The notes below the pieces were generated by a model. The model made no database searches and was not told the origin of the DNA. It saw only the letters and a program-made list of their open reading frames with translations. The translations under genes and the position numbers were made by a program. A DNA stretch of 64,000 nucleotides from positions 1-64,000 of the forward strand of contig JAUCBJ010007673.1 in the NCBI GenBank assembly GCA_032718475.1, written 5' to 3'. Of this stretch, positions 3,001-26,200 are shown in pieces (the first letter of the stretch is position 1; each line of letters opens with the position of its first letter). The DNA comes from Nemertoderma westbladi (Eukaryota > Animalia > Xenacoelomorpha).

Positions 3001-3780
3001 TACCCTTTCACTACTCGTTTATTCCAGTTGTTATTGTAGTTGGTACACCTACCCATTCACTACTCGTTTATTCCAGTTGTTATTGTAGTTGGTACACCTA
3101 CCCATTCACTACTCGTCCATTCCAGTTGTTATTGTAGTTGGTAGATCGACCCATTCACTACTCGTTTATTCCAGTTGTTATTGTAGTTGGTACACCTACC
3201 CATTCACTACTCGTTCATTCCAGTTGTTATTGTAGTTGGTACACCTACCCATTCACTACTCGTTTATTCCAGTTGTTATTGTAGTTGGTACACCTACCCA
3301 TTCACTACTCGTTTATTCCAGTTGTTATTGTAGTTGGTACACCTACCCATTTACTACTCGTTTATTCCAGTTGTTATTGTAGTTGGTACACCTACCCATT
3401 CACTACTCGTTTATTCCAGTTGTTATTGTAGTTGGTACACCTACCCATTCACTACTCGTTCATTCCAGTTGTTATTGTAGTTGGTACACCTACCCATTCA
3501 CTACTCGTTTATTCCAGTTGTTATTGTAGTTGGTACACCTACCCATTCACTACTCGTTTATTCCAGTTGTTATTGTAGTTGGTAGATCTACCCATTTACT
3601 ACTCGTTTATTCCGGTTGTTATTGTAGTTGGTACACCTACCCATTCACTACTCGTCCATTCCAGTTGTTATTGTAGTTGGTACACCTACCCATTTACTAC
3701 TCGTTTATTCCGGTTGTTATTGTAGTTGGTACACCTACCCATTCACTACTCGTTCATTCCGGTTGTTGTAGTAGGTACAC
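1..3780. repeat. 49-bp tandem repeat array (about 77 copies visible, runs off the left edge), intronic in the PHM-like gene
   Basis: Unit TGGTACACCTACCCATTCACTACTCGTTTATTCCAGTTGTTATTGTAGT repeats head-to-tail with only scattered point variants. The right-most unit merges into the coding exon at 3739-3868. Confidence 0.98.
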
Positions 3781-3868
3781 CTCCCCGCGATGTAATCTCC
3801 TGGTCTAATAGAAAGTCCTTTTGTTGTGGTCGGATAAAATCTTTGCGGCAATTTTGGGCTTTTCTTCC
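3739..3868 (-). CDS. PHM: PHM-like copper monooxygenase, exon 6 (GKKSPKLPQRFYPTTTKGLSIRPGDYIAGRCTYYNNRNERVVNG); later exon(s) lie off-window
   Basis: Acceptor tttcag at 3869 and donor GTAGGT at 3738; phase matches the previous exon. Resembles the PHM segment GKxxPxxPQxFY...I.xGD.+A.RCT. Confidence 0.9.
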
Positions 3869-4819: not shown

Positions 4820-5243
4820 CTGAAACAAAACAGGAATAATATGGACTATAAAGTAAAAAAAGGCCGATAAATTCAGGGAGAGGTATTTTTGGAATGTCTT
4901 AGACCTATACAAATCATTAAAATAAACCAACTCTAAGTCAGAATATAATATGTGCAGGCAAGTATTATTATAAAAAAATCATGAGATTATCAGAATTAAC
5001 ATTAAAAAAAAATAAAAAAACTTTAATATTAAAAATATTGAAATCAATAAAACTGTAACAGAACGACTTCCTAGAATAAAAATTAATAATAGAAAGTCTT
5101 TTCCTCCCTTAAATTATTGAAACAAATCCACAATAATCAACGATATTAGTTCTTTCTTTTCACTATTTTTATTTATTTTTGATAATTAATTTCAATGTGT
5201 CTCATTGATTCCAGTTGTTAATCTCTCAGATAATAAAACTAAC

Positions 5244-5519
5244 GCCTCATCGGTTATAGTCAGCTTCACTCCGGAATCATCGGTTAGTCCCGGATTCATA
5301 CTGAACTCATCGACCTCTGCATAATGGACCTGTATAATTATAGAACCGACCCCGGTGTCTCCGCCGATCGCTAATCCAACATCTTTCGGGAACACAACAC
5401 CACCTTGGGCGTCCATCGCCCAGTCGTAGACGAAGGTGTGGTTCCTGGAGTCCCGACAAGCTGAGTCAGTCCGGTCGGGGATTGGTCGAGGGGACGCAGT
5501 TCTATCGCCACCGCAATGC
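5244..5519 (-). CDS. PHM: PHM-like exon 3 (HCGG...VYDWAMDAQGGVVFPKDVGLAIGGDTGVGSIIIQVHY...TDDSGVKLTITDE), carrying the third CuH His
   Basis: Acceptor ttttctag and donor GTTAGT. Contains the PHM motifs YxWAxDA, PxxVGxxIGG, QVHY and DxSGV. Confidence 0.92.
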
Positions 5520-5914
5520 CTAGAAAATATTGCCAAGTATTATTTTATGACTGACAATCTAAGTTGACAATTAAAAAACGGATGATTTATTTGGTAATAA
5601 ATTGATACCGGTAGTCTAAATTAAAATTTAGAATTATACTATACTATAATGTATCTGTTATGAGATAAATATAAATCAACCATAACATCAATAAAGCACA
5701 TTTCTAATAGTAGCAATGATCTTTTAGTTTGAAATACATGACAATTTTAACCAAATATTTTGATATAAATTTTATTTATATTTGTGATAAATTTAATAAT
5801 AAATTAAGTAACTGAATTTATTTTATATATATTTTTCAATCAGAAATATCGATTCCTCGGATAGTAGATTATTTTACCTGCTCGTACACAATTAACCAAA
5901 TGAATTTAACTAAC

Positions 5915-6063
5915 CAAACAACTCCATATGCTCTAGCAGGATGTTTACAAGCCCAAACTAATATATGATGCACTCGGTGTGGTTTAAAGACCGGGTCGAA
6001 CCCAATAATATATTCTGTTTTGTTGGAATTTGTTGGGAATTCGTAACAAACATATTCGTCATT
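5915..6063 (-). CDS. PHM: PHM-like exon 2 (NDEYVCYEFPTNSNKTEYIIGFDPVFKPHRVHHILVWACKHPARAYGVVW), carrying the CuH HH ligands
   Basis: Acceptor ttttttag and donor GTTAGT. DxYxC...YIxGFxP...HHxLxxxC matches PHM; TG|G restores Trp across the intron. Confidence 0.92.
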
Positions 6064-6092
6064 CTAAAAAATACAGTGCAAATTGAAATTTG

Positions 6093-6419: not shown

Positions 6420-7261
6420 TGATGACAAGGGATCCCCCCAAACTTTTCTACAAATCTTTATCATATTGCTTGAAATTTGAAACACAACTAGCTCAACTCA
6501 CCGTGGTTGTTGCCATGAAGCAGGAATTTTCGATTTCGCCTTTAAATTTTTTAAATAAGCGTTTTAAAAAAGTGTCTTTTGCGAAATCGCACCATCCGTA
6601 TCATTGCCATTCTTCACTTTAGTCGTAATTTTTTAGGGGCATACGATTTCCTAACAAAGATACATTTTCAGACACGCCGGTCGAATTTAAGGGTGGCGCA
6701 CGGACAGCGGCGCGCGCCGCAACGGCACATCGGCCCGGCGCGACTAGAAGGAGTGGGAATTTCGAAAAAGTATGAAAGTAAAAAAAGTCATAAAAAAAAA
6801 CAAAAAATGTAATTCTAGGGGGTCTACCGGACCGTCGAAGATTTCTGATTGGTCGATCGCGTTTTCGTCGATTTCGGCGGGAAGTAAGCGAATAAAGTAC
6901 AAACATGTACAAGCGATATGGTAGGGAAGGGGGTCCTCTATCCAACGGAAGCGGTCCCGATGTGGCCTATTAAGTAGTTCTCGAGATATTGATAGAAGTA
7001 CCGAGTCTACAGAAAAATGCACTAATTAGCAATTAGCGCTAATTAAGAGTTAATTAAAAATAAATTGGCGAAAGTAACGATGCCAATCGATGTAAATCCA
7101 TTAGAGGAATACGCCAATTTTTAAAATTTCGAAAAAGACCCAAGAAGAGCAGAGTTATTCAACTTTTTTTAAAATTGAGGTCTTTGTCGCCAAGGCGTGT
7201 CAGGGTCTCGAATGCCCGCCGATCCATTTTTTGCTATTATTGAGAAAAAAAGGGAATATGA
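6420..7261. mobile_element. Probable unclassified non-autonomous interspersed repeat into which BEL-1 inserted (appears to continue after 19257); boundaries uncertain
   Basis: Abrupt shift to CpG-rich non-coding sequence in the style of non-autonomous DNA-transposon repeats. No termini could be defined. Confidence 0.35.
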
Positions 7262-8523
7262 TGTAAAAGCTTCTGTGGGATATAACTGGCCCCTTTGCTT
7301 CGCAATCCAGTTTCCCCCCAGGCGCTGGAATACTCTAAAAAGGTTCTCTAACTGTATATATATTCCCCTCGCCCGCAAGGTACCGTTATAGGTGTTTTAA
7401 CGGACATAAAAGTCATTCTGCTATATACGTGTTTTGGCGGACATGGTAAGGCAAAAAACCTGCAATGCACCAAATACCTTTCACAGCTTAGCCGTGATCA
7501 TTCATATTACGACATCTAACAGCTGGTTGCTGACATGGAAACAGCCATTGGACGCATGGTTCTTTGTTTGGCTTGAGCCAATCAGAGCGATTTTTCCTGT
7601 CGACGTGTAGCTTTTCGGCCGATCATAAGGAGAGTGTTCAGTCTTACTGTTTTTACTTGATACTTTGTGTTATTGATATCTAGGCCAGGAACAACGGCTC
7701 TAGAGTCAATTCGTTTTCATACTTTAGAAGAAACATTAGTAGGCTTAAATTATAGAGCATATGACTGTTATCGATTCATATCAATGCATAACAATACTTT
7801 GTTCACATCTTGTCATATCATATCTTAACTTACCGTCTTAATGCTGTTTACTGTTGTGTTTTGGTTGAATATTATTTGGAGAACATATATAAAGAACCCA
7901 AATTTCCCAATTTTCTTGATACACTACAGGTTAGAGAGGCGGGTTATATATAGCGATTGCGACTTATATTGTTGTGGTTTGTAGTGAATTTAATGCTATT
8001 TGATAAGCACTACATTGGTCCGTTGCTGTTCTCTTTATATATGATAAAATTCATTGATGGTCGGCAAATTAGTGTGCAGTATTGTGTGTTACCGGTAGTG
8101 TGCATGATTGTGATTGATAACTAAGCATTTCCTAAAGAATGCGCCTCATACATGAATCTTAAGCCTTACCGACTTACCATTGTGATTAGTATAAGTCATA
8201 TCTCGGTTTACTTAGATAGAGCGCCACGTCCTAAAGGAACTGTTAATATTTCCCGAAAGTAAATAATATTAGTCAGAAATTAATTATTAACGATCAATCG
8301 AATAATACAATACAGTAAGCTTCACTGCAATAATAATTTAAGCCCTCAGAATCCAGTCTCCCGGGATTATCCAGCGGGTGAATGGACGCGCACTAGGCTG
8401 GCTTCTGCTAATGTTGTGTTTATTGGTATTAAATATTTGTCATCTTCTAAAGTATATTTATAAACCAAAAGACATATAAATTTTGGCGGGTTAAACTGCT
8501 AAAGGTCTTCAAAAGCGCGTACA
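7262..8523 (+). repeat. BEL-1 5' LTR (1262 bp)
   Basis: TGTAAAAGC...GCGCGTACA. Direct repeat of 17989-19252 with about 8 substitutions and one 2-bp indel by eye. Confidence 0.97.
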
Positions 8524-8534
8524 ATAACAGTCAT
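8524..8534 (+). promoter_or_regulatory. BEL-1 non-canonical primer-binding site ATAACAGTCAT, complementary to LTR positions 7761-7771
   Basis: Abuts the LTR end, lacks the TGG of a tRNA PBS, and is the exact reverse complement of ATGACTGTTAT at 7761-7771 and 18490-18500. Confidence 0.75.
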
Positions 8535-8564
8535 TGACTTTATTGCAGTAAGCAATAAAGTTGA

Positions 8565-9470
8565 AAGTACCGGTCGACCGGTAAACCTGAACCGGTACTT
8601 CTGTAGGTCCGTAGGCCCAACTGCCATAACCGGTACTGCTGTAGGTCCGTAGGTCCAACTGTCAGAACCGGTACTTCTGTAGGCCTGTAGGCCCAACTGT
8701 CCTAACCGGTACTTCCAGTATAAGTACATTAGTATTATTCGATTTTGATTATTGTATACTGGTAGGTCTTAGTATTTAATCAGGGACTGCAGCCCTGGTT
8801 TTTTATTGAGATTTTACTCATTTCTGTCGGTTTTATTTACATGTAAGTTAATATTGAGCTGAAGACGTGTAAGTCTGCTCAGATTGTTCAGATAATTGTA
8901 GGCCGGACTGTTGTTAGATTGTTGTTGAGTTTGGAGAGATTACGGCGTGTGTAGAGTTTGTCCGATAGAGTGCCAGTTAGTAAGTTGGGGCAGCCATAGC
9001 TGTAAGGTCAATCCCCTCTTAAAGAATAAGTCGTACTACCGTGTTAGAACGCATACTAACTAACAATTTTGGAATCTGCACATACTGTAGTTTATTTAGG
9101 CTTGACAGTATTCTGCCAGCGTTTTGGCTTGTGTTTGTTTGTGTGGTCTGTTCAGATACCGTAATAGTTATTACTCAGATATTTTGTAGGCTGGATTGTT
9201 GTCTAGCTATTATTAGGTCTGAAGAGATTGCTGCTTGTGTAGAGTTTGTCTGATAAAGTGCCAGTTAGTAAGTTGGGGCAGCAATAGCGGTAAGGTCAAT
9301 CCCCTCTTAAAGAATAAGTCGTACTACCGTGTTAGAACGCATACTAACTAACCGTTTTGGAATCTGCACATACAGTAGTTTATTTAGGCTTGGTGGTAGT
9401 CTGCCAGCATTTGGTCTGTATTTTGTTTGAGTATTCTGTACGGGTAGCGTAATATTTATTATTCAGAGTT
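8565..9470 (+). repeat. Tandem repeats in the BEL-1 5' leader: about 39-bp ACCGGTACT..GTAGGCCCAACTG units (8590-8720) and an about 289-bp duplication (8900-9470)
   Basis: GTCAATCCCCTCTTAAAGAATAAGTCGTACTACCGTGTTAGAACGC recurs at about 9007 and 9296. The larger duplication is also present in the BEL-3 leader (about 63560-64000). Confidence 0.8.
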
Positions 9471-10788
9471 TATGCGATTATTCGCAACATTCATGTCCCC
9501 AAGTTTATTAATACAGTAATTGTGCTTGTTATACATACCGTTATAGTTAAATTAACCCCGGTACTACACGGGCTGCTTGGCGTAGGTAAAGACTGGTGAC
9601 TTTGTGCTTCGGTCACTCCAGCAGATGCCGTGGTTCTTTTAACTGTTCAAGTATATTTAACTACTGATTATTTGTTGTACCAGTACTTGTACCTAATTTA
9701 GGGTTTAGTCTACAGTGCTTTCCGAAGTAATTAGTGTGTAGGCAGTATATTTGTGTTGTAAAGTGGTTAATAGGCACGCTGGATCTGGTAGTCCGCGGTA
9801 ATTAACTTCTAGGTAGGAACACTCCGTGATACATAACGTAGTACCTATAGCGATACGGTTATAGGTCGTCAGGCGGTGGTATTTTCCTATCTGGACAGTG
9901 CAATATATTTACTACTACTTATTATTTTCAAATACCGTAGTACCCTGTCCGTTGTAATAACCAGAATTCTAACCCTTTGTTAGGCTGGTTTGTAGACTTC
10001 CTGTAAAATTACCCTAAAAATTAGTACGTAATATTTTTGTTGTGTTTAATTAGAGATTTAATCTCACCTGTATCGTAAGTAATTTGTAGTATTAAGTAAC
10101 TTAGGTAAATTAGAATAATCTGTTTTAGTGTCCCATAGGTAGCACTTCACTGAGAGCGCACAGCTTCTGTGTAGTGACTCCCCCAGAAATAATAACATTT
10201 ATTTCAAATCTTGACAAAACCCCTTTTAAACGGGTATATATCTATTATAAATCAACTCAAACGATTTATAAATAGTAGGCCTGCCATACAATAACTAGGT
10301 CTTAATATCAGTTGGACTGCTGCTTAAATAACGGTAATAAAGTAAGTTAAAGTAACCAAGTAACCCTAAAATATTCAGAAATTCAATTATTCTAAAATAA
10401 TTGACATACCGGTATTTACCATAGGCTTATTATATTTATTTCTATGGATTTGTGCTGAAATCATACCGGTATTCTGTAATTAATTCTAGTTCATAATTAT
10501 ACTTATATATACTATAAGTGTAAGCTGCATACCGGTATTCACGATAGGCCTATTATATATTTATATATATTTGTGCTAAAATTATATACCTGTATTCTGT
10601 GACAAATCTAGTCTGTAATAATACTTATATATCTACTATAAGCATACCGGTATTCTAATATATTATATATATCACGCTACACTGAGTAGCAGTATCGGTA
10701 ATTAATTATTAGGCTAACAGTGATACTGAATTACTAGACTTGCTTTAGCTGTAATCATAGCAGTAGGCATTCAACTGTACAAACAAAC

Positions 10789-13700
10789 ATGTCTGACACA
10801 ACCCAATCACTGTCGGATAGTCTCTTAGAAAGTGTTAGAATGACTGTTAGACAGTGTCTTAAAAAGATCAGTGACCCAGATCCAAGTATAGAACATCCTA
10901 GATCCAAGTCTAAGTCACCTACTATTGTCAAAAAGGCCATCCCTACAGTAGTAGTGTCAGACCCTAGGCTAGTAGATCAACGTAGGTCTATCATCGGTAC
11001 TCGGGCCCAAGTCAAGCGGGATCAAGAAGCAGCTGTCAAACAGCAGCAACATCCTAGCCTAGAACCTAGCTCCAGTAGTTCGGATACTGCTGAGCGGACG
11101 CCCGAACGCGGAGCGAAGATGGTGGATACGGTTTATGATGAACGGCCAACCTATGAAGAATCAACCGACGCCACTTCTTCTCAAGTGGAAAGCGAAGTGG
11201 AAAGCGAATTAACAGCAGAGAAGCCGCGAACTAGAGACGCCATTGACATCTATCTGTCAGACTATCAGCGATTCCTAGGAGACGAAGAGTTGAGGAGACG
11301 ACTGTCTGGACTTCGCCCCAATAATGAAGGAACCAAGCTTGTGTTGGACGCAATCGATGCGGAAATGTTAGCTGCTAACCAAGCAGAATTTGATGAAAAA
11401 CTCCGCCTCGCTAGAGTCCAAGAAGAAAAAGTAAAGAAAAGACGGATAGAGGAACAAAAGGCGGCGGCTACGGCAGAAGCAGAAGCAGAAAGAAAAGCAG
11501 CAGCGGCAGAAGCAGAAGCAGAAAGAAAAGCAGCGGCGGCAGAAGTAGAAGCAGAAAGAATAGCAGCAAAGGCAGCCGCGGCGGAAGCAGAAGCAAAAAG
11601 AAAGGCAGCGGCGGCAGAAGCAAAGGCGGAAAGGGCAGTGGCAGAAGCGGAACGGAGAGCGTCTGAGCAGACTACCCAACTGGAGTTGGAAAATCTGCAA
11701 GAGACGCAAGACAACATAAATAAACAGATAACTGCTAGTCAAATGCAGATGATGAGACGATCTACTCCCAAACGCCAGGGATACACATCATCGGAGGAAA
11801 GCAAAACCACCGATCCTGAAGGCGGAGGAAATAGATCTCGTCTAAGCAGGCGTAGAAAAACAGCTCACCGTCACAAATTGCCTGATTTGCCCCCAGCTGT
11901 TAGAAGACAGTTAGCTAGCGCAGACTTAGGTAGTACGGAATCCACATACCAACCTATTCAGGTCAAAAGACTCCCTACAATAGTTGATGAGCCTGAAATA
12001 ATTAGGCCTGTCGTTCCAAAAGTCACACCTGTGCTAGAGACCCCTGTACTTCCAGAGCTTAACTCTAAGTTCCCTTTACACAGTACTACACTGCCTGTAC
12101 CCGGTAGAACAATCCATGAGAATATTCCTGTCCTGGAAGCTGAGAGAGAAATTAAAGATTTGTCTCCCGTCGTCCCACGTCAGCCCGCTACAATGTTGGC
12201 GACTCCCGCTTCGGCGGTCGAGTGGGTAGAGGAGGGACGGCGGGGGATGAATCTCCTGCTCGGACAGATGCAGGAGACTGTCCACCAGCTTAAGGGAACA
12301 GTAAGGGAAAGTAGGGCAGAGTTGCAAGAAGTGCAGCAAAGTATCGCACTGGAACGCGACAAGTTAGTCAATATACAAAAGGGCATACCAATACCCCCTG
12401 TAACATTGTGTCAACCTGTTAGGTCTGAAGTATTACATGCGCAAGGTGTGGAGCCTACACGCATCTATACTGCTAGTGAAGTAGAAACTCCTATAGCAAA
12501 CCCTATTAAGGGTGATTATAGACCTGTTATTAATGATATTCCCTATAGACCTGATAATGATCCGAGAAATTTATATACCGATAATTCGATATTAAATAAT
12601 ACGATGGCCCAAGAAAGCTTTACGCGTCAGATGGCTAGAACAGAAGCCCGCCAAGCGGTCAAAGTGGGAGAGATCGTCAAATTCAATGGAGATGAGATGA
12701 AATGGTTACCTTTCAACGAATATTACAAAGACAGCATACAGAACTCTGTACTATCTAACGGAGAGAAACTTAGGTTCCTCATCAAGTGCTTGGAAGGACC
12801 TCCCAAGTTAATGGCGTTAAAGTTTATTGGACATCCAGAAGGATTAAGACAAGTATGGGATACATTAAACATCAGGTATGGTAACAAGGATAACATAGCT
12901 AAGTATTTGTATGCAAAATTAGTAGCCCCCCGACACTTCCTTAGTAGCGGGATTATAGAGTTTTCCGATGAGATTCAAGAGATCTGTAGACAATTGGACT
13001 GGTTAGGTAAGTCTCATGAATATCAGAGTTCCATGGTTATTGGAGCCGTAGTCTCTACTTTACCAAAGGGTGGAGTATGTACACGCTGGGACAAGAAAGT
13101 GTTGTACATGAATGAACAACAACGACGAAGCCCTACCATGGCTGATCTCATGTCCTTCTTAGATGGTGAGGTAAAACTACAACTCATCAAGCAGGCCAGA
13201 GAGAAAACATCGGAAAATAAGGTAAGTGAGAAACCCGTTTCTAGGAGAAGGATAATACCAGTGTGTTATACTGACGACGGCGAAAGCCAAGCTTCTCAAG
13301 AAGAGGACAGCGGGAAAGACACAGCAAAATCTTACTATGACAACAAGACCTATAAAGACGTAAGTAAATACAAGTCTCGAATCAGTGACAGGAGAGAACA
13401 GGTAACAACAACTCCTCCTACGTCTCCTAAGAGAATTCACGGAAGAAAGCCCGAAGAAAGAACGAGAGTGCATAACGTTACCCAAGGTAAGGTGAGTAAC
13501 ATCAAACCAAAATGTGCGCTGTGCGACGGGCCCCACCGTTTGAGTGCGTGTGCTGAATTTCTAAAGAAATCCCCTGTAGACAGACGTACAGTCCTGTGGA
13601 GTAAGCGGTTATGCTATAATTGCCTCAGATCAGGACACCAACGGCGAACCTGTTACTCCGACGTAAAGTGTGCAAAGTGTGGCGCGAAACATCACATCTT

Positions 13701-14946
13701 GTTACACAGTGAGTTCGAACGAGACAACCCGAGTCAGGTAAGTGAGCCCGAACTACATGTCCAATTCAGTGATGTAAATGACACTGATCAAGAGTCTGAG
13801 ATGGAAGGATTCTATACTGACGAATTCTCCGACGCCAATGAATCCTGTTACCTAATAAATATCTCAGTGTATCGAGCACTTACTTATGAAAAGGACACCG
13901 ACAATGAGTTCCCCCCAACTACTTTTGCCAGACAACCATCTTGGAAAGCTCCAACTTCCAACGTAGGAATCAGAGAATTTCCTGTAGTGCAGGTAAGAGT
14001 TCATGGTCCTAACAAAAGTTACATAGTGAACGCCCTCCTTGACTCCGGCAGCACAGGAACATTCATCGATCAAGAACTAGCCGAAGATATCTTTGCTGGA
14101 CAACCCAAATTCCGGACTAAATTGAATATGTTAGGAATTATGCAGGTTTGGAAATCTACCCTAACGGCAGATTACTATGTAGGTGTGTTGTCCACCCCCC
14201 AGGATAAATTAGGAGCACAAGGTATAAGGTCGGTAAAAATGGTGGCTATAAAGAACTTCGCTACTACCCAAGCAGACCTTTATAATTGGGACGAGGATGA
14301 GAGCATCCAACATCTTAAGATACCTCGATTCCAGACAGATTATCCTGGAGTGCAAATACTCATCGGCCAAAACGCGCATGAGGCGCTCGAGACATTGGAG
14401 AAACGGCCTGCTCAACCGCAGCCACTACAAACCTATGCGGTAAGAACTAGAGTAGGTTGGTACTTCACTGGCCCTTCCCGTAGAACTCTCAAAGAGAGAT
14501 TACCTCAACAACAGGTATACCAAGTAAAGGAATGGGAAGTGGAGAGCAGTGATGTGGACGATCCAACTGAGGGAACACCATACTCCTCAGATAATGACGA
14601 TATTAACTCCAATGTAGATCAATGGAGACATTGCCTTGGGACGATTAATCCAGCCGACATCGCTTCCAGAGGAGCAACTCCTCAAGAACTGATAGATACT
14701 CCAGGCTGGTTAGGTGGATCCGACTTCTTAAGTAAAGAAGAAGAAGAATGGCCTCCTCATTTTACAACGGCGGAGATTAGACAGGCCAAGGGAGCGGAGA
14801 AAGTAACACAACAACTCAATCGCCCAGCTAGTCGTTTATGTTTACTGGAAAGAGACCGAAAACTGTCCGGAAACTATGGAAGGCAAGATACTCTTCCTAC
14901 GACCACTTCCCTAATCCGACAAATATCTAGGGACTCTATAACGTAA
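10789..14946 (+). CDS. gag: BEL-1 Gag-protease polyprotein (1385 aa); RT, RNase H and integrase removed by in-frame deletions
   Basis: Ala/Glu coiled-coil repeats; DUF1759-like KFNGD..W..F...EKLRFL segment; three Bel-type zinc knuckles (CALCDGPH..C, CYNCLRSGH..C, CAKCGAKHH.LLH); protease LLDSGS. Only short pol remnants follow (QWRHC..INPADIASRG; RPASRLCLLE). Confidence 0.92.
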   Translation: MSDTTQSLSDSLLESVRMTVRQCLKKISDPDPSIEHPRSKSKSPTIVKKAIPTVVVSDPRLVDQRRSIIGTRAQVKRDQEAAVKQQQHPSLEPSSSSSDTAERTPERGAKMVDTVYDERPTYEESTDATSSQVESEVESELTAEKPRTRDAIDIYLSDYQRFLGDEELRRRLSGLRPNNEGTKLVLDAIDAEMLAANQAEFDEKLRLARVQEEKVKKRRIEEQKAAATAEAEAERKAAAAEAEAERKAAAAEVEAERIAAKAAAAEAEAKRKAAAAEAKAERAVAEAERRASEQTTQLELENLQETQDNINKQITASQMQMMRRSTPKRQGYTSSEESKTTDPEGGGNRSRLSRRRKTAHRHKLPDLPPAVRRQLASADLGSTESTYQPIQVKRLPTIVDEPEIIRPVVPKVTPVLETPVLPELNSKFPLHSTTLPVPGRTIHENIPVLEAEREIKDLSPVVPRQPATMLATPASAVEWVEEGRRGMNLLLGQMQETVHQLKGTVRESRAELQEVQQSIALERDKLVNIQKGIPIPPVTLCQPVRSEVLHAQGVEPTRIYTASEVETPIANPIKGDYRPVINDIPYRPDNDPRNLYTDNSILNNTMAQESFTRQMARTEARQAVKVGEIVKFNGDEMKWLPFNEYYKDSIQNSVLSNGEKLRFLIKCLEGPPKLMALKFIGHPEGLRQVWDTLNIRYGNKDNIAKYLYAKLVAPRHFLSSGIIEFSDEIQEICRQLDWLGKSHEYQSSMVIGAVVSTLPKGGVCTRWDKKVLYMNEQQRRSPTMADLMSFLDGEVKLQLIKQAREKTSENKVSEKPVSRRRIIPVCYTDDGESQASQEEDSGKDTAKSYYDNKTYKDVSKYKSRISDRREQVTTTPPTSPKRIHGRKPEERTRVHNVTQGKVSNIKPKCALCDGPHRLSACAEFLKKSPVDRRTVLWSKRLCYNCLRSGHQRRTCYSDVKCAKCGAKHHILLHSEFERDNPSQVSEPELHVQFSDVNDTDQESEMEGFYTDEFSDANESCYLINISVYRALTYEKDTDNEFPPTTFARQPSWKAPTSNVGIREFPVVQVRVHGPNKSYIVNALLDSGSTGTFIDQELAEDIFAGQPKFRTKLNMLGIMQVWKSTLTADYYVGVLSTPQDKLGAQGIRSVKMVAIKNFATTQADLYNWDEDESIQHLKIPRFQTDYPGVQILIGQNAHEALETLEKRPAQPQPLQTYAVRTRVGWYFTGPSRRTLKERLPQQQVYQVKEWEVESSDVDDPTEGTPYSSDNDDINSNVDQWRHCLGTINPADIASRGATPQELIDTPGWLGGSDFLSKEEEEWPPHFTTAEIRQAKGAEKVTQQLNRPASRLCLLERDRKLSGNYGRQDTLPTTTSLIRQISRDSIT

Positions 14947-16577
14947 TAACATATGGAGTGGGCGTGTGACTATATCATTTTATATTTGTTTTTATTTTAT
15001 ATTTATGTATGTATTATTATGTAATTTTATTATAATCGTTTTCTTTAATTTTATTTAGTAGAATGTTATTTTAGTGATTATTTAGTAGATTAGTGCAATA
15101 TATTAGTGTTTATTACGTACGTAATTACTTATAATATATATTAGTGCGACGGCGAGAAATAATTATTTTTTCTCTTTCCTTACTGTCCGTATCATATTAT
15201 AAATACGTGACTACAGTAAGATGAAATGTCCGTACTTATTAAAGTACAATAAAGCTCCTACTATACTTCAAGTATTATTGGTAGGCAGAGTATTAGGAAT
15301 GCAAAGTTCAGATCCTCGTGTCTCGGCTAAACCAAGCTCTGGGTAGACCTTGGAAACGACTTGCCTCTTCACACTGACATTGCTTCGTGCGATATTGCTC
15401 TTCTACCTTATATTAAATAATACATATAGTAGCGTGATGTCCCTCTAACAGTAGCGTAAAACGCAAATAAATCTGTTAAACCTTTTGACCATCTGTAATT
15501 CTAGTCGATTAAGATATCGCGGCACCCACCGATATACTTGAAAGACAAATTCTAGAATCAGTGGTTAACGTCCCCAGACAAGTTCTGGAATAAATCGGTG
15601 CCCATCTTAAATATTAATTAATATTTATTAAAATCTGTAAAATTCGGATACTTTAAAATTTCTAGTCAATTAAGATATCGCAGCACTTACCGATACTCTT
15701 AAAAGACAATTTTATAGAATTAAAGATCCTCAGTCCCCAGACATGCTCTGGAATAAAATTTGTGTCAATTTTAACATCAAATAATAAAATTCACGGGAAT
15801 AAATTTAAATTCATATTTTTAAATGAATTTCATAAATTGTCATTTTGTACAATTTATAACATTCCCAAAATTCCATTAATTAATAGATCACGGGAGCGGA
15901 GATTCATCCTATTGAGTGTATTAGAGTGCGAGAATCTCCAACATATAGTCAATAGCCGATAAAATTAATAAAATCATACATAGAGAGGATATTGACAATT
16001 AAAGAATTATTATTAAATAGCATCCCAGATCTGTATGCATGAGAATTACCCTAATTCTACCGCTAGCATTCCATAATGTCACCATAGCAACACCCACGCT
16101 AGAATTAGAAGCAAGTTAAGAGAACAATAGAAAGCTTGTCCCATTGCATAGCATAGAGAATACATAATACACTGTTAGTATCCAAGGATACACAGTAATA
16201 ACGTGACATTCTGGAATGCACTGACTAACGGACAAATGGCCTGTATGTGTACAATTGGTGACAGTTGTGTGGAATTTGTGCGTTTATAGGTGAATGTTAC
16301 TGCTAAAGTATGTTTACAGTAGCTAGTCGCAATTGTGAAAGTAGCCCAACTCTCCTATAGAAAGAACCTAAAGTGGATTCAAGCCTTTGGGACGGACAGT
16401 GGAGTGACTTGTGCCGGTTATCGTTGTCGTGCTGTTGCTACATGTTAGCGTAAACACCGCGACGACGGTACATCGGCGCTGAGAATCCCACTGTCCGGGG
16501 GCGAAGAGAGGTAGGCAGCGACGCCCGCTCGCCTAAACATAAACTCATTACAATATTAATAAACTCAGATAGCAGAT

Positions 16578-17910
16578 ATGACGGAGTTGATAGAAGATGA
16601 TCTTGGTATCAGGGAGCGATATACTCTAACTTTACAAGCATTTGTGGATAGCTTGATACGCGGTGAAACCGATCCAACCATTACGGAGGACGATGGTCGT
16701 CATATCGAACCGCCGATGTCCCAAGAGCAACTTACGCGTGAATTGGACTATCGAAAATTCACCGCTCGCTATACGCATCGTAATAATACGTATATGGACC
16801 TCCTAACTACCGGCCATCCTATCGATTTACATGATACGGACGATGTAGACACCGAAAGGGAAATGGTTCTATTTAAATATCATACCCAGCGACAACGATT
16901 ACATCCTAGAATGGTATCAAGGTCCACAGTGTCTCACTGCGTACAATTATCGCCATGCCAACTATGTTTCTCGGCAACGTTGTCGGTTATGCGCATCGAG
17001 AGACCATGTTACGCCCATGGACACAAACGTCCGCTGTTCCTATTTCCACGAACAACCGGTGATGGAAATTTATTGCGCGTATTGCAGACTCAATAACTTG
17101 CACATTTTTGCGGTTTGCCCTCAATTTATGACTCAATGTCACCATTGTCAACTAAAGGGACACGCCAGTTTCGATTGCCCTTTTAATCACGATTTGGAAA
17201 GCGTAGATGAAATGATCACACTACGTTACATCAGAGCTTGGGAAGCGAACGCTGATTTACATTGTGATTCGCGCCATCGTTATTATCCTGGACGCGCTTA
17301 CGAAGGAATTTATGCGTTCCATCCTTATCTATTCGCTTCTGTCGAACAGAAATCACGCATATCGAGTTACGAACTACTGAAGCGCGTCGGAGAATGTATT
17401 TCAACCAAGTTCGTACGCAAATTTCTCAGGAGTGTTAATCCTAGCGACCTTCATTCCTATAACTTAATCAATTATATCCGTTAGGATCCGGACTATGGAG
17501 ACTTATTTGTTAACTCACACCCCGAGTTACAGGAAGTGTATCGACGACCTTACGAATACCGAGCCCGCGAACGCGAGTTGGAAAGAACCATTAAACCCAG
17601 GAGGTTTCTAACTGCCTATGGTCCACCCACGGCCCTCGTTCAGACCACTCGTAAAGGACCCGTAAGAGCGGCTGTCTTGAAACGAGCTCTCAAAGCCGTT
17701 AGACCCCTCTCCCCTGACGTTGATGTCAATCAACCCGGTACTTCGACTGGCGGATACACCGACCATAATCCTACACCCTCTGATGCAATCATATTGCACC
17801 CTTCACCCAGGAGTTATAGCCCTCCTTGTAAAGTGGCTCGCCCCAAAGAGAAAAGGACTCTGGCTAGCTTTAAAAGACTGCGTAAACGCCGTCCGCGCAA
17901 GAAAGACTAA
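16578..17910 (+). pseudogene. BEL-1 remnant of the extra ORF3 (N-terminus joined to the zinc-knuckle C-terminus; exonuclease core deleted, frameshifted)
   Basis: Matches BEL-3 52941-52628 and about 49735-48717. The junction falls at microhomology CAGCG near 16890. Confidence 0.88.
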
Positions 17911-17980
17911 CTGTTTAGAGTATTTACGTATATTAGAAACTGTGATTTTGTATATTTTATAGACTCAAATCCCATTTTCT

Positions 17981-17988
17981 GGGAGCGG
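17981..17988 (+). promoter_or_regulatory. BEL-1 polypurine tract GGGAGCGG
   Basis: Immediately precedes the 3' LTR, after a T-tract. Confidence 0.85.
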
Positions 17989-19252
17989 TGTAAAAGCTTC
18001 TGTGGGATATAACTGGCCCCTTTGCTTCGCAATCCAGTTTCCCCCCAGGCGCTGGAATACTCTAAAAAGGTTCTCTAACTGTATATATATATTCCCCTCG
18101 CCCGCAAGGTACCGTTATAGGTGTTTTAACGGACATAAAAGTCATTCTGCTATATACGTGTTTTGGCGGACATGGTAAGGCAAAAAACCTGCAATGCACC
18201 AAATACCTTTCACAGCTTAGCCGTGATGATTCATATTACGACATCTAACAGCTGGTTGCTGACATGGAAACAGCCATTGGACGCATGGTTCTTTGTTTGG
18301 CTTGAGCCAATCAGAGCGATTTTTCCTGTCGACGTGTAGCTTTTCGGCCGATCATAAGGAGAGTGTTCAGTCTTACTGTTTTTACTTGATACTTTGTGTT
18401 ATTGCTATCTAGGCCAGGAACAACGGCTCTAGAGTCAATTCGTTTTCATACTTTAGAAGAAACATTAGTAGGCTTAAATTATAGAGCGTATGACTGTTAT
18501 CGATTCATATCAATGCATAACAATACTTTGTTCACATCTTGTCATATCATATCTTAACTTACCGTCTTAATGCTGTTTACTGTTGTGTTTTGGTTGAATA
18601 TTATTTGGAGAACATATATAAAGAACCCAAATTTCCCAATTTTCTTGATACACTACAGGTTAGAGAGGCGGGTTATATATAGCGATTGCGACTTATATTG
18701 TTGTGGTTTGTAGTGAATTTAATGCTATTTGATAAGCACTACATTGGTCCGTTGCTGTTCTCTTTATATATGATAAAATTCATTGACGGTCGGCAAATTA
18801 GTGTGCAGTATTGTGTGTTACCGGTAGTGTGCATGATTGTGACTGATAACTAAGCATTTCCTAAAGAATGCGCCTCATACGTGAATCTTAAGCCTTACCG
18901 ACTTACCGTTGTGATTAGTATAAGTCATATCTCGGTTTACTTAGATAGAGCGCCACGTCCTAAAGGAACTGTTAATATTTCCCGAAAGTAAATAATATTA
19001 GTCAGAAATTAATTATTAACGATCAATCGAATAATACAATACAGTAAGCTTCACTGCAATAATAATTTAAGCCCTCAGAATCCAGTCTCCCGGGATTATC
19101 CAGCGGGTGAATGGACGCGCACTAGGCTGGCTTCTGCTAATGTTGTGTTTATTGGTAATAAATATTTGTCATCTTCTAAAGTATATTTATAAACCAAAAG
19201 ACATATAAATTTTGGCGGGTTAAACTGCTAAAGGTCTTCAAAAGCGCGTACA
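17989..19252 (+). repeat. BEL-1 3' LTR (1264 bp)
   Basis: Direct repeat of 7262-8523, followed by the TSD TATGA. Confidence 0.97.
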
Positions 19253-20053
19253 TATGAGGTATATTGATAAAATTATTTGCGACCTAGAGCGCTGCGTACA
19301 AGTAATGTTATATGAAATATAGTTATTTTTAATCCATTTAGGGTCTATTCTCTATTCTATGTTATCCTAATGACCTGAGTAAATGTAACATACTTAGTGA
19401 AAGCGTCCCGATGTTAAATACAGTATTTTTAGAACTAAACCTTGATTCTTTTTATAAATGCTATAAACTCGGACAGTTGAAAACTGTTGTTCACCCAGGC
19501 ACGGAGCGAGTGGCTGGGTGAACAACCAAACATTTATATTCGGAGCGCTTCCCCCCCCCCCCCCCCCCCCCCCCCTCGAAAAATTGCGGGGGGAGGGGGG
19601 GGGGGGGGTATTAGTGACAACAACAAACATCTTTGTTTTATAACTTGCGATATTCAAAAGTTATATTCGATTATCGTATATAATAATTAATAATTCGAAT
19701 TAAGCGATAATAAATTAATACATCTCCTTATACTGAGATTTACTTCGAGACTGTTCCCAATTCTCTCTCTCATCTTCATATTTTTTTCAAGTCAAAACTT
19801 AAATATTATCGTACGTGTAAAAATAGCGTCTCTTCCCTCCTCGTATCTTCTCTTCGATTTGTCACCCGCTCTCTTTATCATCTTATTTACTCTTCTCTTC
19901 TATGCGTTTCTTTTCTTATCTCTTCTCTACTATTGTTATTTCTCTCATCTTCTAAAACTTCTAAAATTTTTAGTATGTGGGGCGAGCCACGAAGTTGGCG
20001 GAGCCTTAGCGAATTGACACTGTTAGGGGGTGGGTCAATTTATGCAAATAGTT

Positions 20054-20085
<32 letters not shown>

Positions 20086-20475
20086 CGTCGTCGTCGTCGT
20101 TACGATTTTGACATGCTAATAACTTTGTCGGATTTAAAGCTGCCAAGTTGAAAATTTGTAGGTATCAATATGAGCAAAAGTTGAGATTTTTGAGAGACTT
20201 TCAGACACCATCAGTGCAATGGTCTCCCGCTAGAGGGCCACATGTCTAAACATTAAATGCCCTCCCATTTCTTTGCTTTTAATCCGTTTAAGCTGAAACT
20301 TGGCAGATATGTATTAGACCATTAGCTGTGACTTTCAAAGGAGGCGAATCCATCTGCAGTTCTCCAGTCTGCCGCTAGAGGGCCAAAGGTCTGAAAGTGA
20401 AATCGTTGTCGTCGTTACGATTTTGACATGCTAATAACTTTGTCGGATTTAAAGCTGCCAAGTTGAAAATTTGTA

Positions 20476-22401
20476 TATAGAATTATATTCCCTAAATGCC
20501 GTGGATTTTCAAAATTTTATTTTATTCGAATTAACTTTGTAAAGATTGCTTTGAGTTCTCATTAGTATTGGTTCTATCTATTGTGTATCTATCGGTCAAG
20601 TGGTTCAGTAGCTCAGTTGGTAGAGCGTTGGAAATTATATGTGTAGTAGGTATCGAGTTCGAATCCTAATAAGTGCGAATTATTTTTTGTGCAGAATTTC
20701 AACTCATTTAAATTAACCGCTACAAATTAATTGCATTTGTCTGTACCAATGAGACCGTAGTTATTTGATTGTAACCAATGTTGTGTAAGTTATATATTAG
20801 CTGGACCAATAAGCTATCTTTAAAACCTTGTTAGAACCTATAGAACAATCGAGAATTTTCTCGATTGATTGCGGCACAAATTTGGTATAAAAAGGTGCGA
20901 TTTCGTTCATTAATAAAATCTACTTTAGTTCACTTACTACTACTTTAGTATACATTATCTTATCAATATTCTGTCGTGCTTAGTTTATTCTCAGATTACA
21001 TTGTATTATAATTGTATCTTCTGTAATAAAGTCAGAATATTCTCTCAGCTTTTCTGTTTTACTATGGTTTCACTACGGTGAACAAACTCGGGGACAGGAT
21101 GGCCAGCTAGAGATCGGGCCGCAGCAATGAACGGGAACATCACGGGAATGTAGACGAGAGACAACCCGCAATACCATTTAGAGTTATTCGCCCATCGCCT
21201 GAAAGGTTAGACAGCGTTCGATCCTTGCTACCTAAGTGTAAGACCAAAAGATCAAAGGTAGACGTAGTGACACGCTGTAAGCCTAAAATTACATCATAGG
21301 GACTGTACTGTCTTGATTCAGGAAAAAACCGCAGTAGACCTTCATATTCCTACGGGAGGAGAGAGAGCAGATACTAGTACGCAGATAGGACGTAGGCACA
21401 CCGGTACAAGGCATACACATTGGTTAGGGTGCAGCAAACTGTACGCTTAACTCTTGCTAAGTACAGGTGTGTGTGCGACTATTTGCAGTACGACCGTGTC
21501 TATTACATCAGAACTTGTAGGCTAGGGGGTTGCTGTGTTTTCACCTGAATTGGGATTGTACCGTTCAGGCGGTAGGGCAGTTTACGCTAGGCGCAAATAA
21601 ATTGAGGCTATCAGGGATATACTAACATCTACCGTGTCCCCGCCAACGCCCTAATAGGAAGTTACCCGGACTACCTGGGTGACTAAAATTCTGGATAGGA
21701 GCCAGGATAGCTATTAGTACCCGTACGCCTACAGTAGTAAACTAACACATCTCTTCTTAGTATCAGGGACCTGGTACCTAAAATTGCCGAATTCTGGGCG
21801 TAGTATTAACCTTATGCCTGAATTTGAGTCCTGGAAATACGCAAGAGGGGAAGGAACCTTATCATTCGTGAGTATTAGACCTACAAGTTATAAAATTAGA
21901 ATATTCGTAAAATGCACACCGTACCCAGTAATTATATATGTGAAGGAGCAAAACTGCTTTGACCGTTCAGAATTAACACGCGCGCGTTAGAAATTATTTA
22001 CACCTCAAAATATATAAAATTAACTTTCGTCCTTACTGCACTTTGCTCGCTAGTTAGACATCTCCAAATATCTGCCTCTGTACCTAGCTAGCGTCTCTTT
22101 GCCCAACCATATAAATCACACCGCGGCAAAGTATACGAGCCCCTTAGTCCGTCAGTGAGTCAGCCTGATTTTAGGATTCGCTGCGCGGGATTTTGTTTTA
22201 TCGAAGTTTGTCTGCTCGTAGACTGTTTTCTGCCTCACCGGTTAAAAGAGATCGATACTGCAATATATTCGCTTACTTAGGGTTTACTGTTTTGGTGAGA
22301 AGGTCGGATTTATGATTTGATTTACAAACTTTACAGTAGGATATTGCAGGTATTGTTACCGTCTCTTCCGATAGTAGGAATAGGCGTATCTCTCCAATTT
22401 A
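20476..22401 (+). repeat. BEL-2 5' LTR (1926 bp), termini TATAG...ATTTA
   Basis: Direct repeat of 38361-41522 once the nested insertion is removed. TATA-like TATAAAAAG at about 20886. Confidence 0.95.
20602..20676 (+). ncRNA. tRNA-derived Pol III promoter-like cassette inside the BEL-2 LTR (second copy at 38487-38561); not a functional tRNA
   Basis: A box TAGCTCAGTTGG with D-arm GCTC/GAGC and B box GAGTTCGAATCC. Anticodon and acceptor stems are degenerate. Confidence 0.7.
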
Positions 22402-22412
22402 GTAGGAATATG
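22402..22412 (+). promoter_or_regulatory. BEL-2 non-canonical primer-binding site GTAGGAATATG, complementary to LTR positions 21343-21353
   Basis: Abuts the LTR end, has no TGG, and is the exact reverse complement of CATATTCCTAC at 21343-21353. Confidence 0.72.
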
Positions 22413-23211
22413 TTTTACTGAACTACGGTTCGGTAGGACTAAAGTTATTTGAAAATTCTGTATTTTGAGGTAAAAATTTGTATTTGATTAGCTAAGTGCT
22501 AATTTTTTGAAATAAAATTTGATTTGAACCGCGTGTAAAATATTTTTGGAATTGAATACCGGTGTTTAAAAAAGGGTTTAAATACCATATTGTACCGGTA
22601 CAAAATTTTCGTAAAGTAAAACCTAACTCTTTTGTTTTTTCAGGATTCAGAACTCATTTCTAGGCTGTAACGGGAGCAAGACCGTGTTTAGCAAGTTTGG
22701 GAGATAGATAACTCAACAACTTTGGTTGGGAAAATCGCGTTTCGTCCGCAACGTTAAAAACGGAAAGGTTCACGTCCGGTTTGTATCTGGGAATCTGTTT
22801 TTCTGGAGAATTATTGGAGTGGGTGAGTTTGAAAAGTTGCATAAATAAGTTAGGCATTACCGTATTAGTTAAAATTATTGTGGGTTCCACTGTCTCAAGT
22901 ATTTATGCATTCCGTACGATTTCTTTGTTCATTGCTGAATTAGTCCGTATTATTGTATTTAATTTACCTTTTGATAACGCATATCGTTATCCGATTTATT
23001 TGTTGTAAAATTGGCCGCTAGGCTAATTTTATTATATACTTATTCCGTGACATTTATTTGCTGTAAAATTGGCCGTTTAGGCTAATTTTATCCATCTGCT
23101 ATAAAATCGGCCGGTAGGCTAATTTTATATGACTGTAATTAGTACCGTTTTATACAAATACGGTAAACTCGATACTTTGACACTCACTTCACTTGACTTA
23201 CAACTACCGAA

Positions 23212-26200
23212 ATGAGTGACAAACAAGACTATACGAAGAATACACAAACCGACTATGACTCATGTGACGGAGATAAGTCAGCAGCGGAAGAACAACAGGG
23301 GAAGACTCGCGAGCCTACCGAACCTACACCGTGTGCGTCACCAGTACATCCAACGGGAGTACCGGATGCCGTAGTACGAGGCGACGGCAGGACCGAGGAC
23401 TTTCTAACTGTTCCGCAACCTAGATATAGGGAAACGGAAATGGTAAGTTCAGCAGGAAGCACAGAAAGTGTGGTTAGAAGCGTCGGTGGATACATGGCGC
23501 ATATAACCAGGAGTATTGGAGAAGGCCAACGCATATTAGATGGGTTGACCGCTCCGATGTCTCGATTCGAGTTCTACACCCTCCAGGTTAGAGTACAGAG
23601 TAAAGTATATAAGTCCGTAGATAATCTAGTTGGCCTACAAGATCTAGCTAGACAGAGACAGGACATGGATACTCAACTTAGAATCCTCGAGAAACTAATG
23701 ATCACTAGAGAGAAACTAATTCAGTTTAAGTCGACGATTAGACAGATACAACAGGAACAAGCGGACCAGTTGTTAGGTGAGTCAGTTTCGGACGAATTAT
23801 TACAACCCGAGGAAGAACAGGAACTGTACCGACTGGATGGACAATTGGAACACCTGACGGACCACTTACGCATGTGCGGCGAAGACGTCGGCGATTTGGA
23901 AACCGTGCCGGAATACACGAGGGAAACTTCATTTGCACAAATCGAATCGGCACCGGGAATACTAAATCAATCATTGGTAAGTATTCGTAGCGAAATATGC
24001 GAAGGAAGTATAGTCACGTCAGAAGTTGCTCGACAACAGCAGCAGTTCTACAGACAGCAACACGAGATGGAAGAACAAACTCAACTGCTAATGATACAAA
24101 CAGCAGTAGAGGAAGAGAAAATACGTGTTGCGAATGTAGCGAGAATCTCTCATCTGCAGGAACAAGCCGAACTCGAAGCGGCCGAAATGGAAAGGTTAGA
24201 GTTGGACATTGCCCAACAAGCGGCAGCGACCGAGTTAGCGCAACGAACGGCAACAGCCGAGTTAGAGCGACAAACGGCAGCGGCAGCGGCAGAGTTAGAG
24301 CGACAAACGGCTGCGGCAGAGTTAGAGCGACAAACGGCTGCGGCAGAGTTAGAGCGACAAAGATTAGTTTCGGAAGCCAGAGTCGAGATGAAGACACGGC
24401 AAATAAAAGCCCAACAAGCGATACGACAAGCAGAGTTCGAGGCGCAACAACAACAAACGGAACAACGAGAAAAGGAAGTTAAACTTCGTTTCGAACTTGA
24501 AAAAAGGGCGAGAGAATTAGCCGAAACCAAGGAAAATCTGGATCTTCTAGCCCGCGACCGATCGATGAGATCTCGTGACGGACATGATTTGGACCAGTTA
24601 GAGGTAAGACATCGCCAAATTCAGGAACGGAAGAAGGAAGGAAGCGTAGGAGCACCCAGACGGGAACGACAATTAATAAAAGACGTGTGTCAACGATTCC
24701 CACAGGTAACTCATATGTTTGCACCGGTTACGACTAAGGAACCTGTTTCGATTGCGGGTAGTAGTGATATTTCTCCTATCCATGGTGCGACGGAACACAG
24801 GTTTGTTATTCCGGACGAGTTTATACCGCCAAGAGCAGCGTCGTCGCCTATTCCGAGAGTCAAGGTAAGTAACCCACCGATTACAGATCGTAGTAGTTTA
24901 TTGACCGGACCTGCGCTACTGACGACAAAACAGGTGAGTCCACCTTTGACACCTAAACCCGTTACACATTACGCTTACCCAATGACGTTTCGACCTACAA
25001 GGCCAGCGGTTTCAAATGCTGTCATCCGACCACCGGTCCAGTTTACATCGCAATCTACGACTTCGAGGAAGACTTGTGAGCCTACCGAACAACGGAGAAC
25101 AGTGGATACGCGACCGTTTAACCAGTTCACATCGCAATCTACGACTTCGAGGAAGACTTGTGAGCCTACCGAACAACGGAGAACAGTGGATACGCGACCG
25201 TTTAACCAGTTCACATCGCAATCTACGACTTCGAGGAAGACTTGTGAGCCTACCGAACAACGGAGATCAGTGGACGATGTTCCGAAACGAGCCGTTAGAA
25301 TTCGAACGACGCAACGGACGCGAGCACGTCGACCACCATATCCAGATGATAGTAGTACTTCGAGCGAATCGGATTACCCGAAACGCGAGGTATTTAGAAC
25401 AGGGGCGGCCGATGAATATAAACGCGAGCGTTCAGACAACTCCTTTGCAGACAATCCTCCACAGAATACACCAACACAGAAGGCGTTACAACCAACGGAC
25501 GCAATTAGTACACAACAGTTCGCCGACATTCTGCGACCAGTTGTCAACAAGTTGGCTCAGATCGAGGAGCGTCTGGAGGAAGTTCAAACCGATAGTTCGA
25601 GGAACACCGAATTCGAACACAATAGACACCCGAAGGCACCACAAAGACCGGTACCTTCAAACCCCACATCGTATCAGGGAAAAGCGCCCAGAAGGGAGAA
25701 CATCAACCAGGTTACCAACCAAGGACGCGAAACTCTGAACGTTGCCGAGGAGATAGCGAAATTCGCAGCCAGACAAGGATTGCCGGTACAACAACCACCG
25801 AAGTTCTCCGGTAGCTCAAAACACTGGCATACCTTCGTAGACTATATCGAATCCCAGATCGCCGTGTGCGCCTTTACATCACGGGAGAAGTTCAATTACC
25901 TGCTCCAAACGTTGTCAGGAGAACCTAAACGTTTGGCGGAGACCTTCGTCGGTGTACCGGACGCTTTCGAACTAGCGTACGATCGTTTGACTTCGATATA
26001 CGGAGGTACAGTGAGTATGGCCAGGTCAGTAATAGAGGAACTCTGTAAGGGAGGGGCTATCACTAAACCCGTCGACTTACTAAAACTGGCTGACGAGATT
26101 AAGAACGCTATCACTACCTTAAGATCAATTGGACAACTTGATTACGGGAATACCCCTACAGTTCTATTAAAGATAATAGGACGACTCCACCATCGACTTC

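Follow-up and report, generated by a model that had tools for sequence, protein, structure and literature searches.

Three Bel/Pao elements in the window

The window analysed here, a 64,000-nucleotide (nt) stretch of Nemertoderma westbladi DNA (contig JAUCBJ010007673.1, positions 1 to 64,000), contains three Bel/Pao long terminal repeat (LTR) retrotransposons, BEL-1 and BEL-2 on the forward strand and BEL-3 on the reverse strand, which were delimited by self-comparison of the window, open reading frames (ORFs) and Pfam domains. In BEL-1 and BEL-2, the primer-binding site and an 11-mer within the element's own LTR are exact reverse complements, and it is likely that these young elements start minus-strand synthesis with a piece of their own RNA and not with a host transfer RNA (tRNA), because 12 of 12 related families also match their own LTR and lack TGG at the site, because these matches are separated from swapped controls and because the site varies among sister copies. 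The features that bear on this reading are the following.

7262–19252 (+), BEL-1, whole element (LTR self-comparison)
7257–7261 and 19253–19257, BEL-1 target-site duplication (TSD), TATGA
7262–8523 (+), BEL-1 5′ LTR, 1262 bp, TG...CA ends (self-comparison)
7733–7760 (+), BEL-1 block immediately upstream of the 11-mer, conserved in BEL-3, with TAGA-N-C-N-T as its end (LTR alignment)
7761–7771 (+), BEL-1 candidate self-primer 11-mer, exact reverse complement of 8524–8534, with its 3′ LTR copy at 18490–18500
8524–8534 (+), BEL-1 primer-binding site ATAACAGTCAT, zero spacer to the LTR, without TGG
8535–8563 (+), BEL-1 predicted hairpin of 11–13 bp directly 3′ of the site (folding)
17989–19252 (+), BEL-1 3′ LTR, with the polypurine tract (PPT) abutting its 5′ side (self-comparison)
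20476–41522 (+), BEL-2, whole element, ~21 kb including insertions
20471–20475 and 41523–41527, BEL-2 TSD, TTGTA
20476–22401 (+), BEL-2 5′ LTR, 1926 bp, TA...TA ends (self-comparison)
21343–21353 (+), BEL-2 candidate self-primer 11-mer, preceded by TAGA-N-C-N-T, exact reverse complement of 22402–22412
21358–21364 with 22389–22395 (+), BEL-2 predicted 7-bp side helix near the LTR end (pair probability 0.91–0.98)
22402–22412 (+), BEL-2 primer-binding site GTAGGAATATG, zero spacer to the LTR, without TGG
22413–22438 (+), BEL-2 predicted 11-bp hairpin directly 3′ of the site (folding)
38361–41522 (+), BEL-2 3′ LTR, carrying a ~1.2 kb insertion at about 39192–40423 (self-comparison)
47463–48638 (−), BEL-3 3′ LTR, 75% identical to the BEL-1 LTR (self-comparison)
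48185–48195 (−), BEL-3 homologous 11-mer, differing at two positions from the BEL-1 11-mer

The 5′ and 3′ LTRs differ by 8 substitutions in BEL-1 and by only 4 in BEL-2, whose TSD is confirmed by another copy of the host repeat, near 20150, in which the site is empty. BEL-3 runs from 47463 past the end of the window, with its 5′ LTR and primer site outside it. Both duplexes between 11-mer and site are exactly 11 bp long, with zero spacer and no extension beyond, and the LTRs of BEL-1 and BEL-2 have no common stretch longer than 15 nt. A preliminary description of the window had reported the two matches (including that of the BEL-1 site with both LTR copies), their coordinates, their spacer-free length of 11 bp, the lack of a TGG-starting site in either element and the lack of evident similarity between the two LTRs, and all of this holds.

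The chance of an 11-mer match per element is 6 × 10−4 to 9 × 10−4 given base or dinucleotide composition; the figure given in that description, 3–5 × 10−4, is revised somewhat upwards. Empirically, 7 of 9443 and 16 of 15,937 internal 11-mers of the two elements have a complement in their own LTR, and the joint chance of both matches is about 1 × 10−6. In folds of the RNA from the 11-mer through the site, the duplex is present in the minimum free energy and centroid structures of both elements, with predicted pair probabilities of 0.90 (BEL-1) and 0.92 (BEL-2), predicted energies of −12.4 and −13.7 kcal/mol and a predicted closed loop of 0.75–1.05 kb. The BEL-2 duplex also holds with earlier RNA starts back to 21240 (predicted probability 0.86–0.92). 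Directly before the 11-mer, all three LTRs carry TAGA-N-C-N-T (1, 3 and 2 occurrences per LTR), which was spotted post hoc and is only a lead for the transcript start, and the shared block at 7733–7760 in BEL-1 is a candidate promoter or transcript start. A CCAAT box is kept in the LTRs of BEL-1 (7574–7592) and BEL-3 (near 48345–48365, −), 160–185 nt upstream of the 11-mer.

Own-LTR complementarity in related families

An alignment search with the reverse transcriptase (RT) yielded 97 loci, mostly 38–45% identical (about 40% RT identity), from metagenomes and metagenome-assembled genomes (MAGs), evidently as host-animal DNA. The 5′ LTR end was mapped from the 3′ copy in 15 loci, picked by eye among those listed, and TGG past the LTR was found in none of the 15; likewise, TGG is absent from the 8 nt that follow the LTR in all 14 families (12 related families and the two of the window). 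Because partial complements in related loci begin right after pyrimidine-rich AG acceptors, GT-AG joins were allowed in the match search. With the offset limited to 3 (strict test), a match of at least 10 bp was reached by 13 of 17 own pairs (BEL-1, BEL-2 and 11 of the 15 loci), compared with 4 of 258 swapped pairs, and none of the 13 duplexes contained a G-U pair. The four misses were resolved by an offset of 4–5, a weaker acceptor tract or the 5′ LTR copy. In a relaxed search with one locus per family, matches of at least 10 bp were found in 14/14 own versus 11/182 swapped pairs, and of 11 bp in 13/14 versus 7/182, six of those seven falling among three close families.

All 12 related families with a mapped LTR end thus carry an own-LTR match of 10–15 bp, strictly Watson-Crick and without TGG, and the complementarity that the preliminary description expected of related families is present and separated from its swap control. 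In all 14 families, the duplex lies 0–4 nt from the LTR end with the 3′ end of the LTR strand toward U5. In a blind scan, 18 further loci whose LTR start but not LTR end was known, some of them from families already counted, gave 13/18 own versus 43/306 swapped matches, the 13 comprising ten spliced after a CA end, one contiguous and two ambiguous. Matched changes on both sides of the duplex occur in the close families L054, L058 and L014, and one A-T pair becomes G-C on both sides between L011 and L034, so that the covariation of site and LTR 11-mer proposed earlier as a check is seen in these close families.

The best relatives among the matches listed are 40–45% identical, derive from cnidarians, molluscs, echinoderms and fish, and carry Peptidase_A17; no close protein relative was found in the database, the best reaching about 45% identity across most of the RT region. 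Viral contigs yielded 0 loci in the RT search, and scans for LTR-end and post-site hairpin patterns found nothing in viral or metagenome contigs. Loci L080–L097 are Bel/Pao elements on contigs of bacterial MAGs, most likely through host-animal contamination of bins.

Matches across splice junctions

The match requires removal of a GT-AG intron in 10 of the 12 related families (introns of 71–511 nt, with GTRAGN-type or GTACGT donors), while those of L058 and L069 are contiguous, as in the window elements. In L075, the 5′ LTR copy (1–214) lacks exactly the 117-nt GT-AG intron of the 3′ copy (6935–7265), and the intron-free form reaches 83 nt upstream of the junction. This form is what one would expect of a genomic RNA whose leader has been spliced, a mosaic assembly also being possible, and its upstream reach hints that the primer may lie away from the extreme 5′ end. 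Since the match spans a splice junction in most relatives, their primer RNA probably carries extra 5′ bases.

Variation among sister copies

Sister copies in the host species were represented by assembly contigs of public sequencing runs (X1–X4, of which X4 is guessed to be RNA-derived) aligned to the window. The family is very abundant, with 11,459 contigs on the BEL-3 LTR in X1. Contig depth over 8478–8575 dips at the primer-binding site, with the LTR end and the downstream hairpin remaining covered. On the BEL-3 LTR, contig depth peaks over the equivalent (48190–48234) of the 7733–7760 block. Within the site, positions 8524, 8528, 8529, 8531 and 8532 vary among sister copies, in addition to further loose-end forms; T at 8532 is carried by 28 contigs of X1 and by each of the 16 X3 contigs that cover the position, and one X4 contig is changed at 5 of the 11 positions. 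No TGG appears in the site variants among the rows listed. A site templated by a tRNA should be fixed, so this variation argues against tRNA priming. The 11-mer of BEL-3 differs from that of BEL-1 at the partners of 8531 and 8532, both variable, and a prediction was set beforehand that these two changes should be accompanied by A at 8531 and T at 8532 in the site. A at 8531 was found in one X1 contig, X1 being a run without changes at 8528 and 8529, and in one X4 contig with four other changes.

Proposed mechanism and alternative explanations

In the mechanism proposed here, folding of the transcript would bring the 11-mer into pairing with the site just beyond U5, with the hairpin predicted to stack on its 3′ side. 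By analogy with Tf1, a cut in the RNA, probably made by RNase H of the element, would then fall immediately 3′ of the 11-mer and leave a 3′-OH abutting the LTR end from which RT could extend into U5. The RNA ends are predicted at 7771 (BEL-1) and 21353 (BEL-2), positions exact enough to make self-priming cheap to test. In the standard scheme, plus-strand strong-stop DNA ends in the primer-binding sequence copied from the primer. If plus-strand synthesis later copies the self-primer in this way, the site would be rewritten each cycle as its strict Watson-Crick complement, which would explain the absence of wobble pairs, the joint drift of both sides and the matches to exon junctions.

The alternative that survives best, and which we nevertheless consider unlikely, is that the pairing is selected for a structural role (packaging, dimerisation or translation), the primer being a host small RNA, a protein or a second RNA copy in trans. 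Conserved hairpins do flank the site, trans pairing of two packaged RNAs would look like cis pairing in sequence, and cleavage at the 11-mer is an extrapolation; however, the position and orientation of the duplex at the LTR end are those of a primer in 14/14 families, the strict Watson-Crick pairing of 13/13 best duplexes fits templated copying better than selection for folding, and no other primer site is present.

It is less probable still, indeed very unlikely, that the primer is a tRNA half or internal fragment and the LTR match incidental or a captured copy of the site. According to PMC6317226, half-tRNA sites exist and need no TGG, those for half-tRNA-Met or half-tRNA-Ile occurring in some Ty1/copia lineages, and the comparison of the sites covered element LTRs, which leaves this explanation some room. 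Against it stand the differences at up to 5 of 11 positions among sister copies, the differences across the 12 related families, the match to the element's exon-exon junction in 10 of them and the absence of any tRNA in these LTRs according to ARAGORN or Rfam. The U3 of BEL-2 does contain a tRNA-like stretch with A-box and B-box (20595–20680 and 38480–38565), perhaps the head of a short interspersed nuclear element or an RNA polymerase III promoter; as an encoded primer it was rejected, being called by neither ARAGORN nor Rfam and with the best match to the site lying elsewhere.

Chance inverted repeats in AT-rich LTRs, or rearrangement leftovers in defective copies (BEL-1 lacks most of pol, that of BEL-2 is interrupted, and internal 11-mers with an LTR complement do occur at the rate given above), are highly improbable given the joint figure, the position of both matches exactly at the LTR end and the separation of own from swapped pairs, the relaxed one-per-family control largely refuting chance.

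The following points weigh against self-priming. The case is built from DNA sequence and predicted folds, RNA ends, cleavage and primer-linked cDNA being deductions from them. The BEL-1 duplex holds for an RNA start at 7753 and is gone in folds starting at 7720, 7660 and 7600, so the model needs a transcript start close to the 11-mer, and predicted pair probabilities are low in L029 (0.03), L045 (0.00) and L058 (0.27). The 3′ LTR copy of the BEL-2 11-mer (40462–40472) has one mismatch to the primer site. This mismatch is one of the four inter-LTR substitutions, three of which lie within 70 nt around the insertion point, two of these close to the 11-mer; it could reflect a tract from another copy or later mutation. 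The relaxed search was chosen post hoc, after the misses had been seen; its wrong-strand control gave 10 bp in 3/14 families (two besides BEL-1's own) and 11 bp in 0/14, and 5 of 18 loci in the blind scan had no match. The prediction from the BEL-3 11-mer is borne out weakly at best, any linkage of A at 8531 to T at 8532 or to BEL-3 being conjectural, no variants at the LTR 11-mer itself occur among the rows listed, and the covariation expected earlier is unphased within the window families. Finally, the comparison set contains no tRNA-primed Bel/Pao control with a mapped LTR end; the distant loci L083, L088 and L093–L096 were dropped as such controls because their LTR ends were unmappable.

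Phylogenetic position and origin

Quick maximum-likelihood trees of the RT-RNase H region, built without named Bel/Pao references and with a root resting on very distant rows, place BEL-2 and BEL-3 together on long branches within a 41-row group (Shimodaira-Hasegawa-like approximate likelihood ratio test support 99) that holds all 12 self-complementary families. With BEL-3 and most outgroups removed, L046 and L015 join BEL-2 in one group (98). A constraint that unites the 15 self-complementary loci in a clade excluding BEL-2 and L046 is rejected (approximately unbiased test, p-AU 0.025), a result weakened by long branches. L048, which belongs to the family of L046, shows a match of 10 contiguous bp at zero spacer after its inferred CA end.

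As BEL-2 falls inside a broad clade of Bel/Pao elements from marine invertebrates that have own-LTR matches, the origin of the trait appears older and shared. We infer that self-priming is ancestral to a wide marine-animal Bel/Pao branch and that the window families are its intron-free form. The preliminary description had proposed that self-priming arose independently in a Bel/Pao lineage; that these elements self-prime remains likely and their separateness from Tf1/sushi (Ty3/gypsy) is upheld, whereas a trait private to two families is not. We lean, by a small measure, towards a broader scenario in which a large Belpaoviridae branch of marine invertebrates, and probably fish, gave up tRNA priming. 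Its ancestral primer would have been made by host splicing of an LTR intron, with the site rewritten from that RNA each cycle, and the window families would be derived forms having giant LTRs, a contiguous primer and a Cys-His third ORF.

Coding regions and other features of the window

The coding regions of BEL-1 and BEL-2 are as follows.

10738–14946 (+), BEL-1 gag-protease ORF (DUF1759)
23197–28173 (+), BEL-2 gag-protease ORF
29163–33182 (+), BEL-2 RT-RNase H-integrase ORF (Peptidase_A17, Integrase_H2C2, DUF5641)
33821–37567 (+), BEL-2 third ORF, 1248 aa, with Cys-His knuckle-like motifs and no Pfam match

BEL-1 lacks RT and integrase, retaining only a short RNase H remnant (14617–14799), and is non-autonomous. 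In BEL-2, ~1 kb of unrelated sequence parts the gag-protease ORF from pol. DUF1759 is found in all three gag ORFs, and BEL-2 and BEL-3, whose RT regions are 44% identical, also have integrase domains after Peptidase_A17. A large third ORF follows pol in both BEL-2 and BEL-3 (49160–52216, −), with a mutual identity of 27% and remnants at 16870–17466 and 45865–46804. It has no Pfam match and is not recognisably env, and an Atlas search gave one weak lead, a CCHC cluster (0.82).

The TA...TA ends of the BEL-2 LTRs, in place of TG...CA, have a parallel in the related L008 and L069, which end in TATA. The insertion in the BEL-2 3′ LTR (39192–40423) and the repeat targeted by BEL-2 (about 19975–20475 / 41523–42330) have similar terminal motifs, with GGGCGAGCCACGAAG at the start and GCGCGAAGGCCC near the end, and probably belong to a single family of small DNA elements, with nesting in both directions. 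In one X2 contig, the end of a BEL-3-type LTR is joined to the start of another with ~20 letters between (47458, 48638), representing either tandem LTRs or a circle junction. Elsewhere in the window, a 49-bp tandem satellite occupies 5–3786 (77 copies, 96% matches), and exon-like stretches at about 5240–5520 and 5860–6070 (−) may belong to a PHM/DBH-type copper monooxygenase, which they resemble by eye.

Comparison with known systems

No published report of self-priming in Bel/Pao elements was found by title or abstract start, in agreement with the preliminary description, which knew of none; supplements, subscription papers, GyDB and Repbase lay outside this search and could hold an earlier remark. 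To our knowledge, self-priming has been demonstrated only for Tf1, with predictions for the gypsy relatives of Tf1 and for a few copia lineages of plants. For the Bel/Pao element Cer7 of C. elegans, a primer of its own has reportedly been proposed in the form of an encoded tRNA-like sequence with a tRNA-type site, and not as a short LTR match. Silencing is known that acts via tRNA fragments at a tRNA-type primer site; if self-priming is confirmed, the elements described here show no such site and this silencing would not apply there, and annotation tools requiring a tRNA site would under-call them. Under the broader scenario outlined above, self-priming would have originated separately in a third LTR superfamily, and reverse transcription would depend on splicing. 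With a self-primed Bel/Pao branch, the mechanism would occur in all three LTR superfamilies, which bears on the order in which hairpin and tRNA priming arose, an issue that PMC3601003 raises. The main text of the Bel/Pao surveys PMC554778, PMC3118150 and PMC6238403 contains 0 occurrences of PBS, tRNA or priming, and PMC8220671 names the primer-binding site (PBS) only generically.

In Tf1, the RNA's initial 11 bases pair with the primer-binding site, and the RNase H cut falls between bases 11 and 12 (PMC7175516 and PMC4600332). The window elements resemble Tf1, Tf2 and Tj1 of the Tf1/sushi group in having an 11-nt site past the 5′ LTR that complements their own LTR RNA, without a tRNA. Unlike these Ty3/gypsy chromoviruses, they have Bel/Pao Pfam domains and no Pfam match to a chromodomain. 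The Tf1 primer lies at the very 5′ end of the RNA, a geometry that the window elements may or may not share; their predicted loop is 0.75–1.05 kb, and the match in their relatives crosses a splice junction. The three-duplex pretzel fold of Tf1, as described in bioRxiv 2022.12.06.519325, also differs from their predicted fold, which is a local hairpin after the site with one side helix in BEL-2 alone; the candidate pretzel helix in BEL-1 (8324–8333/8540–8549) was ruled out at a predicted probability of 0.0. Among plant elements, self-priming has been predicted for Tcn1 (Ty3/gypsy) and TAR/Houba/Osr-1 (Ty1/copia) from a match of at least 10 bp located 0–5 bp past the 5′ LTR (PMC6317226), and TAR has already led to the proposal that self-priming arose more than once. 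The window elements show a match of this length and position, with the difference that the plant lineages belong to other superfamilies.

The virus taxonomy committee ICTV describes Belpaoviridae as tRNA-primed, with an 18-nt site that complements the 3′ end of tRNA-Arg or tRNA-Gly, LTRs of 0.2–1.2 kb and genomes of 4.2–10 kb (PMC8742986). In contrast, a tRNA-type site was found in 0 of the 14 families tested, window included, the window LTRs measure 1.2–1.9 kb, and BEL-2 reaches ~21 kb with insertions, TA...TA ends and a third ORF that is not recognisably env. The window elements share with Belpaoviridae/Semotivirus the order of gag followed by protease, RT, RNase H and integrase, as well as LTRs, a PPT and a 5-bp TSD, and despite the lack of a tRNA-type site they are, as judged by their encoded protein domains, Bel/Pao elements.

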